A stretch of DNA of 38,460 bases from a virus (taxonomy: Duplodnaviria; Caudoviricetes): positions 1-38,460 of the IMG/VR virus record IMGVR_UViG_3300032203_000003. One strand, written 5' to 3'. The notes beneath the pieces are model-generated. The model searched no databases and was not told the origin of the DNA. It was given only the letters and a program-made list of their open reading frames with translations. Made by a program: the position numbers and the translations under genes. Positions 22,228-34,327 of this stretch are shown in pieces. Numbering within the stretch: position 1 is the stretch's first letter; every line of letters begins with the position of its first letter.

Positions 22228-22516
22228 CGTTTTTGGTCGCATCCCGGTATTTCCTTTGATAGATGTCGGCCTGTTGGCGCAACTGCTGTTCTTGCTGCTG
22301 CTGGGCTGACATCAGTGCACGGTTCTGAGCATCCTGCGTTTGCAGCGTGGCGATCAATCCGGCCTGCTGCGCCAGCGTCTTCTGCTGTTCTGCAACCTGC
22401 TGGCGCGCCAACTCCAACCGATGCGACAATAGTGAGCTGTAACCACCCAGGCAGATGGACGCCACCAGCAGGAGCAGCATTCCCCCGCTGGCCAGTTTTG
22501 AGAGCCAGCCGCTCAT
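22130..22516 (-). CDS. i-spanin (Rz-like)
   Basis: N-terminal TM helix, Gln-rich coiled coil, C-terminal Cys; follows the endolysin. Confidence 0.85.
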   Translation of the reverse strand: MSGWLSKLASGGMLLLLVASICLGGYSSLLSHRLELARQQVAEQQKTLAQQAGLIATLQTQDAQNRALMSAQQQQEQQLRQQADIYQRKYRDATKNDECARRTAPGAVLDLMRQHSATTTSADHPVTP

Positions 22517-23043
22517 TTATCCAGCCCCCAGCAAGCGAGCTCTGCCTCTTGGTCTCGCCTTATAATTTGCCCATAACAGCCGTTCGAACGAATGCGGCAA
22601 TCCCGACCACCGTCAAAAATCCAGCGGCGGATCTCTCGGCATGCACCAGGGCGATCACCAGCATTCAGTTTTTTGTAGAACGTCGAAGTGAAGCATTTGC
22701 TGGGGCCGATGTTCCACGGGCAGAACGAGGCAATGCCGACTTTCTGAGGCTCAGTCAGCGTCACCTTGATGTTGCGGTCTACCCAATCGAGAGCTTTCTT
22801 CTGCTCGGCTGCGTCAATCTGCTTGCACTGATCGGCGGTCAGTCTCTGGCCCTTAACGACCTTCTGGCCGTTGACCATTGTCACCCCGCCGCAAACTGTC
22901 CAGATCCCGCCCGCATCCTGATACGCAGTTAACCGCTGCCCTTCCTTCTCGTCCTGAAACTGCGCCATCATCACCGGGGCCGATGCGCCGGCAGCAATCA
23001 ACGCCAGCATCGCGGCACTGAGTTTCGTTTTTAATGTCGCCAC
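22513..23043 (-). CDS. SAR endolysin (T4-type lysozyme, phage 21 R-like)
   Basis: Ala/Gly-rich weakly hydrophobic N-terminus; catalytic E-x8-D-x5-T in EGQRLTAYQDAGGIWT. Confidence 0.93.
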   Translation of the reverse strand: MATLKTKLSAAMLALIAAGASAPVMMAQFQDEKEGQRLTAYQDAGGIWTVCGGVTMVNGQKVVKGQRLTADQCKQIDAAEQKKALDWVDRNIKVTLTEPQKVGIASFCPWNIGPSKCFTSTFYKKLNAGDRPGACREIRRWIFDGGRDCRIRSNGCYGQIIRRDQEAELACWGLDK

Positions 23044-23306
23044 TACTCACCCCCTATCAGGTCAACATCCTGAGCGCTGATGTTCTTGGCGGAGCGGTCA
23101 ATAAGGTACATTTTGAGCAGCCTTTCTCGGCGGCATCTGAACCAGATACCGACAACACACCCGATGACGGAACAGAGGATCCCGACGAAAATCCCGATCA
23201 CCATCCACTCGCTGGGCGAAAAATAATTAATCGCCCCGAGCAGTAGGCCAGTGAGCCAACCGCCATGCGTGGCGCTATCTGCGATTTTTTCCGGCATGGA
23301 TCTCAT
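23043..23306 (-). CDS. Pinholin-type holin with dual start (antiholin ATG 23306, holin ATG 23297)
   Basis: M-R-S-M start as in phage 21 S (MKSM); two TM segments; basic C-terminal region; precedes the SAR endolysin. Confidence 0.85.
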   Translation of the reverse strand: MRSMPEKIADSATHGGWLTGLLLGAINYFSPSEWMVIGIFVGILCSVIGCVVGIWFRCRRERLLKMYLIDRSAKNISAQDVDLIGGE

Positions 23307-23353
23307 CCTTCCCCCTCGCCGGGGCATGCCCTGATCATCGGGTAATAAAAACG

Positions 23354-23376
23354 AAAAACCCGACGGCTGCCGGGTT
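23354..23376 (-). terminator. Terminator directly after mom
   Basis: Minus strand AACCCGGC-AGCC-GTCGGGTT-TTT overlapping the mom stop. Confidence 0.8.
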
Positions 23377-24097
23377 ATGGTGAACTTTCTGGTTTGGGAT
23401 ACGGCTTCGGGCTGAACAGTTTTGTATTAAGCCGCCGGCGCGCTCGCTTGTTCAAAAAGCGGATATAGCGGAATTGGTTAAATGTGTGAGCTGTCGCTCG
23501 ATGTGCATTTTCCTGCAAATAGCTGCCGCGAGTGCCAGCCTTACGCCCTTTCGTCGTCATTGCGATCTTGTGGTACCACTCACCATCGAGCTCGTAGAAC
23601 GTGGTTTGATGACTGCCGACGTAATCAAAATTGCTCGCCTGATACACGACGCCGAACCGCCCGCACCGTTCATCAGCGAACGTCTGCACCCACTCCACCG
23701 CAGGGTAGAGCAACTTGATGATTTTCAGCGCATAGCTGATGGCGCGGGATTCAGTATTGCGCGGCATCCGGTCATGAACCCAGAGCCTATTCAGCTCCAT
23801 GTATTCACGGTTGCCGGTGCCAGCAACGACGCGAGCGCCGCTGCTCGGATTCATCGCATAACCCCATTGCATAACACCCACTAGCTCGCGGCCATCATAG
23901 ATACCAAGGTGCAGATAGGAATTATTCACAACCCGCTTGCTGTAATGGAAGTGGCCGATCACTAAACGGGCCAGCCAGACAGGGATCGTCGCTACGTGTA
24001 AATCTTCACATCCGAAACCAACGGTTTCACCAGCATAGATAACTGGCGCGGGCTTCCCGCTGGCGCGTGACACATTCGTTTTATCGTGTTTTTTCAA
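23375..24097 (-). CDS. mom: Mom-family DNA adenine hypermodification enzyme (Mu Mom homolog); probable TTG start at 24097, 240 aa
   Basis: [82 protein letters not shown] and [11 protein letters not shown] closely match Mu Mom as recalled; GGAG 10 nt before TTG gives a Mu-like length. Confidence 0.93.
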
Positions 24098-24203
24098 TGT
24101 CGCAGTACTCCAATAACACTTGGTGTACTCGTGACCGCTAACAGGGTGCATCAGGCCCGGTATGTTCATCGCGTACCGGGCCACCCTCATCGAGCTAAGA
24201 ATT

Positions 24204-24277
24204 TGGAGCGTCTGGCCAGATTCGAACTGGCGTCACCTGCTTGGAAGGCAGGCGTTATACCCCTTAACTACAGACGC
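24204..24277 (-). tRNA. tRNA-Gly (anticodon TCC)
   Basis: GCGTCTG/CAGACGC acceptor stem, U73 + CCA, D stem GTTA/TAAC, anticodon arm CCTGC-CTTCCAA-GCAGG, T arm GCCAG-TTCGAAT-CTGGC. Confidence 0.95.
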
Positions 24278-24448
24278 AAAATGATTATGGTGGCCGGGAA
24301 TTCGCCGACATCGCTTCCCCTATTGGTTTTCACTTGTATCCCGGCACATCGGTGCCTGCTGTCACCACAATGAACAAACCCACCGTTTCACAACACGAGA
24401 TTTTTCCCGTCGGCGGGCTTGTCATTGTGTTCTGGAAGCCAGAAACGC

Positions 24449-24470
24449 AAAAACCCGCTGGGTGCGGGTT
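24449..24470 (-). terminator. tR'-like late terminator
   Basis: Minus strand AACCCGC-ACCCA-GCGGGTT-TTT about 40 nt after pR'. Confidence 0.85.
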
Positions 24471-24517
24471 CAGGTAATTATTCGTAGTATTCAGGCGAGA
24501 TATGCCACTATTTAAAG

Positions 24518-24546
24518 AATCTACGCCAAGTTTATGCAAAATGCAA
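24518..24546 (-). promoter_or_regulatory. Late promoter pR'
   Basis: -35 TTGCAT (24546-24541), 17 nt, -10 TAGATT (24523-24518), just downstream of Q. Confidence 0.8.
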
Positions 24547-24587: not shown

Positions 24588-25370
24588 TCACTTGGTTATT
24601 TTTTGGAACTCAGTAGCGGCCACGCCTTCCTCAATATCGCATTTCGCCACCAGCGACTCATAGAAGGGCTTCCAGTTACGTGACCATGATGATTGTGTCA
24701 GTTCAGGCAGTAGCGCTGTAATTGCCCTGTGGGCTACGGATGAAGGCATGCGGCTAAAACCTTTGCTGCCGCACCGCTCGCAATCCTTAATGACGGGTGT
24801 ACCTGCTGCCTTGGTTGCCTCACGGTCGAGCGCCTTGCCGGTTCCCTTGCAGTTCCGGCAACGCTTGTGGATCTTCCCTTTGCCGTTGCAGGTCTGGCAC
24901 ATCTCGCGCACCAGCTGGCGTTTCGTCGTTGGCGCGATTTTCTCTTCGCCGTCCATACCGATGTATCCAGGGTAAGTCACAACATCACGCTCGATATCCA
25001 CCAGCCCTTTTCCGTGACAACCGTGACAGGTCACACTGGCACCTGCTGATTGTGAATAATCCTCATAGGCCAACGATGCCAAAATCTGCATACAGCGGGC
25101 CATGCGGCGACCGGCGACTTTACCGACGTGCTTCGGTGCCTTCTTCATCGCGTATAAAGTAAGCTCTGCGATAGCTCTCTCCCGGTCTTCGCTGCTGATG
25201 CCGGTTTTACCCAGAAATGCCGCCATGCCGAAACGAGCCTTTGCCTCGACCATTCCGAGAGCAGCCATAACGTCAGTACCGGTAACACGATCCGCTGAGG
25301 TGCCGTTCGGGGCATCAGTAATGGTCAGCCCCTGTGCGCTGAAGTGCTTCAATGCTGACTCAAGTTTCAT
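24588..25370 (-). CDS. Q: Late antitermination protein Q (zinc-finger type)
   Basis: MKLESALKHF, TGTDVMAALG, four CxxCxGxG motifs, SWSRNWKPFYE; position before pR'. Confidence 0.92.
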   Translation of the reverse strand: MKLESALKHFSAQGLTITDAPNGTSADRVTGTDVMAALGMVEAKARFGMAAFLGKTGISSEDRERAIAELTLYAMKKAPKHVGKVAGRRMARCMQILASLAYEDYSQSAGASVTCHGCHGKGLVDIERDVVTYPGYIGMDGEEKIAPTTKRQLVREMCQTCNGKGKIHKRCRNCKGTGKALDREATKAAGTPVIKDCERCGSKGFSRMPSSVAHRAITALLPELTQSSWSRNWKPFYESLVAKCDIEEGVAATEFQKITK

Positions 25371-33312: not shown

Positions 33313-33503
33313 AAATGAGCCTTTATTTCCGAATTGTTATCTCGCTGGTGATAGCCGCCAGCGTTTACGGCCTGTTTGTACCGGCGCTCATATCTATGAA
33401 AGACACGATCGCCGTTATCTCCGGGTTGGCATTGGCAGTTCTGACCCCGCCATGCCTGTACGCCATTTATATGGGTCTGTTTTCCATTAAGGATAAGAAA
33501 TGA
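33309..33503 (+). CDS. Small two-TM membrane protein coupled to the SPFH gene
   Basis: Two hydrophobic segments; ATGA overlaps. Confidence 0.75.
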   Translation: MKMSLYFRIVISLVIAASVYGLFVPALISMKDTIAVISGLALAVLTPPCLYAIYMGLFSIKDKK

Positions 33504-34327
33504 AAAAAGTAATTATGGCTTCAATCATCGCTCTGTCAGCTGTCGGCCTTGTCGGCTGTGATCGTGTTGAGCCGGGTAACGTTGGCATCAAAGTGAACAA
33601 GCTGGGCGACGACAAAGGCGTTGGTGAAGTCGTGGGCGTTGGTCGCTATTGGACTGGCTGGAATACTGAGGTTTACATCTTCCCTACCTTCAAGCAAATG
33701 AAGACCTACGAAGATGCATTCAGCTTCCAGATGAGCGACGGCACGACAATCGGCTACCACATCGGCGTCGCCTACAAGGTTGATCCAACCAAAGTGACAA
33801 CCATTTTCCAGACCTACCGCAAAGGTGTGGAAGACATCACTGACACCGACCTGCGTCAGAAAATAGCTGACGCCCTTAACCGTCTGGCAAGCCGCATGAG
33901 TACCGATCGCTTTATCGACGGTGGCAAAGCTGACTTGCTTTCCAATGCACTCAATGAGCTTCGGGACGATATGGGGCCAATCGGAATTCAAGTCGTCAGC
34001 CTGTCATGGGTTGGTAAACCAGAATATCCGCCAACGGTGATCGACAGCATCAACGCTAAGGTGACCGCCAACCAGAAAACGCTGCAGCGTGAGCAGGAAG
34101 TGAAGCAACGTGAGGCTGAGGCCAACATGTTGCGAGCCGAAGCCAATGGCCAGGCAGACGCAAAACTGAAGCTGGCAGAGGCAGAAGCCAAGTCAATCCG
34201 TATCCGTGGTGATGCACTTCGCCAAAACCCGGAAGTCATGCAACTGGAAGCGATCAATAAGTGGAATGGCACGCTCCCACAGTACATGACCAGCGGCGCA
34301 GGTACGCCATTCATTCAGGTGAAGTAA
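33500..34327 (+). CDS. SPFH / band-7 domain lipoprotein
   Basis: Lipobox LVGC; RVEPGNVGIKV; EAEA coiled coil; INKWNGTLP. Confidence 0.9.
   Translation: MKKVIMASIIALSAVGLVGCDRVEPGNVGIKVNKLGDDKGVGEVVGVGRYWTGWNTEVYIFPTFKQMKTYEDAFSFQMSDGTTIGYHIGVAYKVDPTKVTTIFQTYRKGVEDITDTDLRQKIADALNRLASRMSTDRFIDGGKADLLSNALNELRDDMGPIGIQVVSLSWVGKPEYPPTVIDSINAKVTANQKTLQREQEVKQREAEANMLRAEANGQADAKLKLAEAEAKSIRIRGDALRQNPEVMQLEAINKWNGTLPQYMTSGAGTPFIQVK

Follow-up and report, generated by a model that had tools for sequence, protein, structure and literature searches.

This locus raises a question about phage tRNA genes. Does the single tRNA of this phage, a tRNA-Gly lying just ahead of a gene for a Mom enzyme, serve translation, supply glycine to the enzyme, or do both? 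Mom of phage Mu is reported to move glycine from Gly-tRNA-Gly onto N6 of deoxyadenosine, giving 6-NcmdA and blocking restriction (PMC13219725, Nat Commun 2026); an acetyl-CoA/iron mechanism had been proposed earlier (PMC7261163). As the 2026 mechanism paper describes it, Mom scavenges host Gly-tRNA, all three E. coli tRNA-Gly isoacceptors serve it, and Mu modifies its own DNA with host tRNA alone (PMC13219725). The donor named in an earlier note on this DNA is a published one. A neighbouring or phage-encoded tRNA goes unmentioned in the main text and searchable supplement text of that paper and in the main text of its preprint, and we found no published proposal of a phage-supplied Mom donor in the searched literature, which leaves most subscription journals outside its coverage.

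The Mom enzyme and its donor are already known, and the pairing of mom with tRNA-Gly has one published precedent, which was left uninterpreted. What is new is the lambdoid Q-tRNA-mom arrangement, together with a family of tRNA-Gly look-alikes at the 3' end of mom that is tightly linked to Mom in the RNA-first direction. If phages supply their own carrier, this would show how an enzyme that modifies DNA can compete for aminoacyl-tRNA against EF-Tu and ribosomes. It would also bear on a long-standing question, by giving some phage tRNA genes a purpose outside translation. From sequence comparison, we lean towards reading the tRNA studied here as an optional, dual-use top-up of the charged glycine tRNA used by Mom.

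A tRNA-Gly gene and mom in a lambdoid late region

The window, by which we mean the whole stretch of 38,460 nt that was analysed, is a single virus record. Pfam matches to integrase, a CI-type repressor, DnaB, Q, holin, lysozyme, terminases, portal, capsid and tail-tip J identify a temperate lambdoid phage, and the closest named homologs are from Serratia (91%). Many public runs contain DNA near-identical to the window, which is therefore no assembly quirk. An SPFH/Band 7 domain gene (PF01145) lies in the early leftward region at 33500-34327 on the plus strand. From Q to the lysis genes, the late region contains the following features:

24588..25370, minus strand: antitermination protein Q (PF03589, E 3e-46)
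24518..24546, minus strand: candidate late promoter pR', TTGCAT-17 nt-TAGATT, chosen by eye and by its expected position after Q
24451..24471, minus strand: intrinsic terminator at the tR' position, its putative role as tR' taken from lambdoid gene order
24278..24450, minus strand: structured spacer from tR' to the tRNA (MFE -59 kcal/mol, a value without shuffle control)
24204..24277, minus strand: tRNA-Gly(UCC), 74 nt (ARAGORN, Rfam RF00005)
24098..24203, minus strand: two-hairpin mom leader (fold z -3.3)
23375..24097, minus strand: mom, 240 aa from TTG (PF25680)
23357..23376, minus strand: intrinsic terminator closing the tRNA-mom cassette before the holin (terminator scan)
22513..23327, minus strand: holin (P21 S type) and lysozyme, the downstream boundary (PF04971, PF00959)

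The earlier note had placed the pair after pR' and tR' and ahead of a terminator that precedes the holin. The terminator-like site at 23357-23376 confirms the closing boundary, and the terminator at 24451-24471 supports a position after tR'. The promoter pR' stands as a by-eye candidate; a consensus scan found 0 promoters and missed this one too. The description of a non-Mu, Q-controlled lambdoid phage also held, with Q upstream, the holin downstream and no Com-like zinc finger in the window, whose sole CxxC...CxRC motif sits in Q. The spacer at 24278..24450 matched no Rfam family. Hairpins of the form TGTGGTG...CCAC, akin by eye to those of the spacer, were seen in L001, L016 and L017, and a small zinc-finger-like ORF (Ogr/Delta-like by eye) lies between tR' and the tRNA in L001 (~2600-2790) and L046 (~2660-2850).

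The single tRNA that ARAGORN called in the whole window is Gly(TCC), on the minus strand at 24204-24277; it scored 71 bits against Rfam RF00005. The claim that this is a complete tRNA-Gly(UCC) and the sole tRNA of the window is thus borne out. It folds as a canonical cloverleaf with its CCA encoded in DNA and ends 106 nt before the likely TTG start of the co-oriented Mu Mom homolog, in line with the ~105 nt first estimated. The features related to ribosome use are intact (G18G19, U33, a 7-nt loop and TTCGA). Loss of the conserved D-loop GG or T-loop TTC is a feature of non-proteinogenic tRNA-Gly; both are kept here. Every GlyRS identity element listed in the earlier note (G1-C72, C2-G71, G3-C70, U73 and C35C36) was found in the sequence, and the identity set given in PMC9976931 comprises G1-C72, C2-G71, U73, C35 and C36. 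The tRNA has the features of a bacterial tRNA-Gly and is predicted to be charged by GlyRS. It can probably decode as well as donate, which would make it dual-use.

The neighbouring protein belongs to the Mom family PF25680 (E 5e-74, 248.8 bits against a curated cut-off of 27.1), a family for which a search of representative proteins returned 3,233 clusters at E 0.001. It is 67.7% identical to Mu Mom and matches PDB 8bv8 at E 8e-107, in an alignment that spans residues 38-266 with one gap and includes the HTH-like insertion region. Nine Mu residues reported as active-site or important (PMC13219725), W48, H58, Y59, R111, S124, D149, R151, Y159 and W181, correspond to W72, H82, Y83, R135, S148, D173, R175, Y183 and W205 of the window protein P0001. 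Glycyl-transfer chemistry is predicted from the 68% identity and these nine kept residues. The start is likely TTG 24097, because both the alignment of homologs and an SD-like GGAG point there. ATG 24190 is an unlikely start, as most homologs begin near residue 31-40.

Com controls Mu mom. The window has a structured leader, the second hairpin of which pairs part of the SD-like GGAG. When the leaders of 15 relatives were aligned to a structure set by hand, 82% of cells were paired and 15 double changes were seen; RNAalifold recovered just 3 pairs in the leader. The leader at 24098-24203 had no Rfam match, and it is kept in lambdoid mom genes with or without a tRNA. The good fold (z -3.3) and the compensatory changes in the SD-covering hairpin suggest that it limits mom translation, and we regard it as a likely candidate for Com-independent translational control.

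The window Mom resembles Mu Mom in its late-region position, the nine residues and the predicted Gly-tRNA-dependent chemistry. The window mom is flanked by Q/tR' and the holin in a lambdoid phage whose head is of the HK97 type, whereas Mu mom lies at the right end of Mu. Mu has Com; the window mom has conserved leader hairpins instead. Neither hallmark of the Mu com-mom operon, a Com gene upstream and the end of a transposable phage, was found in the window. Finally, the window Mom is preceded by its own tRNA-Gly, whereas Mu Mom is described as using host tRNA (PMC13219725).

The dual-use reading can be set out as a series of steps. Q lets transcription read through tR', and on this gene order such read-through would transcribe the tRNA and mom together, late. 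Host enzymes would excise the tRNA, and host GlyRS would charge it through the identity elements present in its sequence. By analogy with Mu, Mom would then transfer the glycyl group from Gly-tRNA-Gly to N6 of dA in double-stranded DNA, where rearrangement to 6-NcmdA would block restriction. The window has ~4,469 SAS adenines among 18,596 adenines, and these would be the Mom targets if the specificity of Mu holds. The extra tRNA would enlarge the donor pool and restock the GGA-reading isoacceptor for which Mom and ribosomes would compete. The leader hairpin over the ribosome-binding site would damp mom translation in place of Com.

tRNA-Gly beside mom and in mom-less late regions

We surveyed the relatives of this locus. 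ARAGORN found seven tRNAs in 48 viral mom loci, every one Gly(UCC). Six stand alone directly upstream of mom and one is a glyT-like copy 794 nt after a partial mom; no other isotype lies directly upstream of mom in the 48 loci. Omitting three loci of Mu type and two that lack usable DNA upstream gave a lambdoid set of 43, with Q upstream confirmed by Pfam in nine and the others grouped by tree and leader. Seven of these 43 loci have an intact tRNA (one called at a relaxed score only), five have remnants (recognized by a profile built from the intact copies) and 31 have neither. Intact or decayed copies are spread over several subclades and three acceptor-stem types, which suggests an old tRNA-mom association with frequent loss. 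The 31 close relatives with neither form indicate that the tRNA is not obligatory for Mom. The isolated phage pAEv1818, by annotation, has neither tRNA nor remnant at mom. The two-part module put forward in the earlier note is supported as a recurrent pairing of mom with a Gly-type tRNA, far beyond chance and clearest for the deformed look-alike of distant Moms (below), but it is not an obligatory one.

The acceptor-type pattern of the window tRNA had six viral matches, five of which adjoin mom; the sixth belongs to a tRNA array in a 167-kb phage with a complete genome, in which mom was not found. In L027, L034 and L044 (~2770-2830), the tRNA slot before mom holds a hairpin, GCCGG-loop-CCGGC followed by TTCA or TCCA, that is not a full cloverleaf. 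An RNA-library contig from a relative ~90% identical to the window spans both tRNA and mom; as an assembled contig it is uninformative on strand or expression.

A different explanation is that the tRNA is a codon aid or a hitchhiker: a normal tRNA of the late region that reads GGA/GGG codons, or insures against the loss of host tRNAs, and shares with mom the insertion slot after tR'. This slot is a tRNA hot spot. Among 80 loci with the same Q family, 74 are without mom within 2.5 kb. Of these, 14 carry tRNAs and 11 carry Gly(UCC), the commonest tRNA of mom-less late regions. Lambdoid prophages have clusters of late tRNAs (Met/Ile-CAT, Arg, Gly, Asn, Thr) in the same slot and with the same UCC anticodon. 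The canonical structure of the window tRNA, the loss of the tRNA by most relatives and a related tRNA of GCATCC type in L461 (a 55% complete record in which mom was not found) are also what a codon aid would predict. However, ten of the 11 mom-less Gly(UCC) copies sit in mixed clusters and are mostly glyT-like with G51-C63, whereas those linked to mom stand alone and differ from them in sequence type.

Gly(UCC) occurs in five of six mom-bearing Q loci vs 11 of 74 mom-less ones (Fisher p 0.001, for phages that are related and with the same five positive contigs as in the 48-locus set). We rejected isotype enrichment alone as proof of a donor role, since late regions without mom have Gly(UCC) as their commonest tRNA as well. 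A survey of the tRNAs beside mom had been proposed as a check, and in the 48 loci it returned Gly(UCC) only.

Codon use cuts both ways. With Serratia as a stand-in host, GGA makes up 11.9% of 616 late-gene Gly codons vs 6.6% of 2,346 (60 ORFs), a 1.8-fold enrichment that fits a codon aid. AGG (3.9x), ACA (4.3x) and ATA (2.3x) are enriched more strongly, yet the window has no tRNA for any of them. With Gly the sole isotype directly upstream of mom as a further point against it, we consider the codon-aid or hitchhiker explanation unlikely, if far from negligible. The GGA enrichment and the lead of Gly(UCC) in mom-less late regions nevertheless leave unsupported the original wording that the tRNA supplies substrate rather than aiding codon reading, and it is the dual-use reading that we carry forward.

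The T stem and EF-Tu

Staphylococcus provides a model for a stricter kind of donor. Its non-proteinogenic tRNA-Gly(UCC) molecules serve as donors to the enzymes that build peptidoglycan bridges (PMC3239215, PMC9976931); as in the window, an additional tRNA-Gly accompanies glycyl transfer of the GNAT type. If the window tRNA were a dedicated non-proteinogenic donor of this type, it would escape EF-Tu and be reserved for Mom, as the staphylococcal tRNA-Gly is for Fem enzymes. The T stem was the reason to consider this. Its sequence, GCCAG/CTGGC, was correctly given in the earlier note; the host sequence given there, GCGGG/CCCGC, did not hold for the Serratia stand-in, whose tRNA-Gly(UCC), a member of a Thr-Tyr-Gly-Thr cluster, has GTGGG/CCCAC.

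We calculated EF-Tu T-stem energies with the values and the 1.3 kcal/mol outlier limit of PMC3239215, taking EF-Tu rules also from PMC11231383. The predicted energy of the window tRNA is -10.2 kcal/mol, against a class mean of -10.8. The Serratia tRNA-Gly genes gave -10.5 (UCC), -11.0 and -11.2 kcal/mol. Copies from late regions without mom ranged from -10.5 to -10.7, and the tRNAs upstream of mom in relatives from -9.6 to -10.2 where computable (L035 has a 49-65 mismatch). Binding of the window tRNA to EF-Tu is thus predicted to be 0.3-0.6 kcal/mol weaker than that of its comparators, which is short of the criterion of at least 1.3 below the class mean. The staphylococcal donor binds weakly (-9.5 kcal/mol, calculated; PMC3239215), whereas the window tRNA is near normal and looks competent for decoding.

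One feature does set the mom-linked tRNAs apart and would suit a dedicated donor: position 51 is a pyrimidine in the window tRNA and in all seven mom-upstream relatives, vs G51-C63 in 11 of 11 mom-less late copies. Against this, the T-stem class of the window tRNA was found at 119 viral loci, with mom detected beside two. That scan took in 31 of the 64 parts that make up the viral collection, with flanks of 1.5 kb for 80 loci and 300 nt for 39, and its Mom profile detects distant Moms less well than Pfam does. A T stem of so common a class is no mark of specialization, and we rejected an EF-Tu-evading T stem as a signature of this tRNA. Evasion of EF-Tu, hinted at in the earlier note, is not supported by -10.2 kcal/mol vs -10.5 for the stand-in UCC tRNA and -10.8 for the class. 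With its ribosome-related features all intact as well, we consider a dedicated donor improbable in the window.

A tRNA-Gly look-alike at distant mom genes

Relaxed scans of mom loci in genomes and metagenomes uncovered a second kind of RNA, a tRNA-Gly look-alike of 68-73 nt at or after the 3' end of mom. The RNA combines a Gly acceptor stem and U73-CCA with a minimal D arm, an anticodon loop of 4-6 nt that includes CC and, in most copies, a TG-type T loop. Examples defined by model R1 and alignment A3 are as follows:

L205, 3693-3762: look-alike
L187, 3782-3849: look-alike
L589-L614: look-alike loci

In an alignment of 18 look-alikes, 94% of cells were paired (100% in the acceptor and T stems) with 56 double changes; none of 500 shuffles did as well, and slid controls reached at most 50% paired. 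One pattern matched 34 distinct copies. All of them share two features that the pattern did not demand, an initial GCG and CC within the anticodon-like loop, and 29 of the 34 have lost TTC. Rfam gave no match in 11 loci at E 0.5, nor in five at the gathering score. ARAGORN called none of 26 look-alikes, and it did call two variants, L375 and L378. The deformed look-alike is likely unable to decode. The window tRNA is excluded from the family, because R1 scores it at 35.9 bits, within the 28-47 of ordinary tRNA-Gly, vs 67-91 for members.

The link to Mom holds when the RNA is the starting point. A same-strand Mom ORF lay just upstream in 4 of 4 cases in one RNA-first test and for 25 of 26 viral matches (23 distinct RNAs) in another; the patterns were derived from mom-linked copies, and some matches repeat seeds. 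Of those 25 ORFs, 19 are close Moms and six are distant ones above the Pfam cut-off, and the lone match without Mom is a 5.5-kb fragment. R1 had three matches across 151 genomes from the family of G001, each beside a strong Mom. Among 401 genomes, the look-alike was present at 4 of 4 strong Moms (two match seeds) and at 0 of 15 weak Mom-family loci. These weak GNATs (L542-L556, family of G001, E 1e-20 to 1e-27) had no R1 match within 1.5 kb and may work with a different donor or target. The family of G002 (151 genomes) gave two strong matches, which correspond to seeds, and nine weak ones, which are ordinary tRNA-Gly; 43 further genomes of the order of G003 gave nothing new, and BLAST of one look-alike hit no GenBank phage.

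Starting from mom, 17 of 80 genome loci carry a look-alike (16 intact, one IS-split), most of them model seeds. Among 208 distinct Moms, 26 have the look-alike, eight an upstream tRNA, one a remnant label and 173 neither RNA nearby. The look-alike Moms appear in several separate places in a midpoint-rooted FastTree, read for its topology alone. Opposite-strand tRNAs of many isotypes lie 150-650 nt after many distant moms; we took these as host attachment-site tRNAs and did not count them. We rejected the idea that the look-alikes are themselves att remnants, because both acceptor strands covary and because L178 and L386 have a separate host-type tRNA-Gly 3' half further downstream.

The tRNA, and those look-alikes that overlap the 3' end of mom, could instead be control elements that mark where RNA is processed or that act, uncharged, as a decoy to hold back a toxic Mom. 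Of 25 look-alikes, 13 overlap the end of the mom ORF, where excision would cut the mRNA (seven others lie within 120 nt and five at 260-483 nt), and a Com-like motif upstream is absent from 17 of the 26 look-alike-bearing Moms. It is present in the other nine, however, and the invariant CC corresponds to C35C36, GlyRS determinants that a processing site would not need (PMC9976931). We regard a control element as highly improbable.

We think it fairly probable that many Mom systems consist of the enzyme and its own glycyl-carrier RNA. The window would hold a little-changed, dual-use form, and the unannotated 70-nt look-alike of proteobacterial prophages, often placed in the last codons of mom, would be charged by host GlyRS, unusable by ribosomes and thus a private donor for DNA hypermodification. 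The look-alike family supports the donor principle more than the window tRNA does. It lies downstream of other Mom clades and may be unrelated to the window tRNA. The distant Moms are the specialized end of the same arrangement, and the window tRNA is the weakest example of specialization. The family offers a natural minimal substrate for what GlyRS and Mom recognize, and a sequence marker for distant Mom enzymes.

The published precedent comes from Dehalococcoides, where a mom homolog in 16 ssrA islands is described as holding a conserved 76-bp tRNA-Gly-like "pseudo-tRNA", with no function given (PMC3146451). As in the window, a mom homolog is physically paired with a Gly-type tRNA structure. 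By its description, the pseudo-tRNA lies inside the first 150 bp of mom and has the anticodon DCC, whereas the window tRNA is separate, canonical and upstream. That element, again by description, sits within the beginning of mom, whereas the look-alike family lies at or after its 3' end (PMC3146451). Mom has also been noted in jumbo phages, in an account that draws no tRNA link (PMC7824862).

Several loci depart from the common look-alike pattern. In L160 (3670-5132), a Mutator/IS256-type element, accompanied by a short target duplication, interrupts the anticodon arm, and in L213 (3655-3724, minus strand) the look-alike is convergent with mom, the sole one on the opposite strand. Other Moms are followed by RNAs in which the D stem is longer, at 5 bp, and the anticodon loop deviates (L334 1447-1521, L337 969-1044, L338 696-771 and L378 2001-2075, the last on the minus strand), which may form a separate subfamily. 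L588 encodes a distant Mom with four in-frame TGA codons (~1400-2127), possibly a recoded genetic code; after this gene comes a further Gly-type tRNA-like sequence with TCCA at its end.
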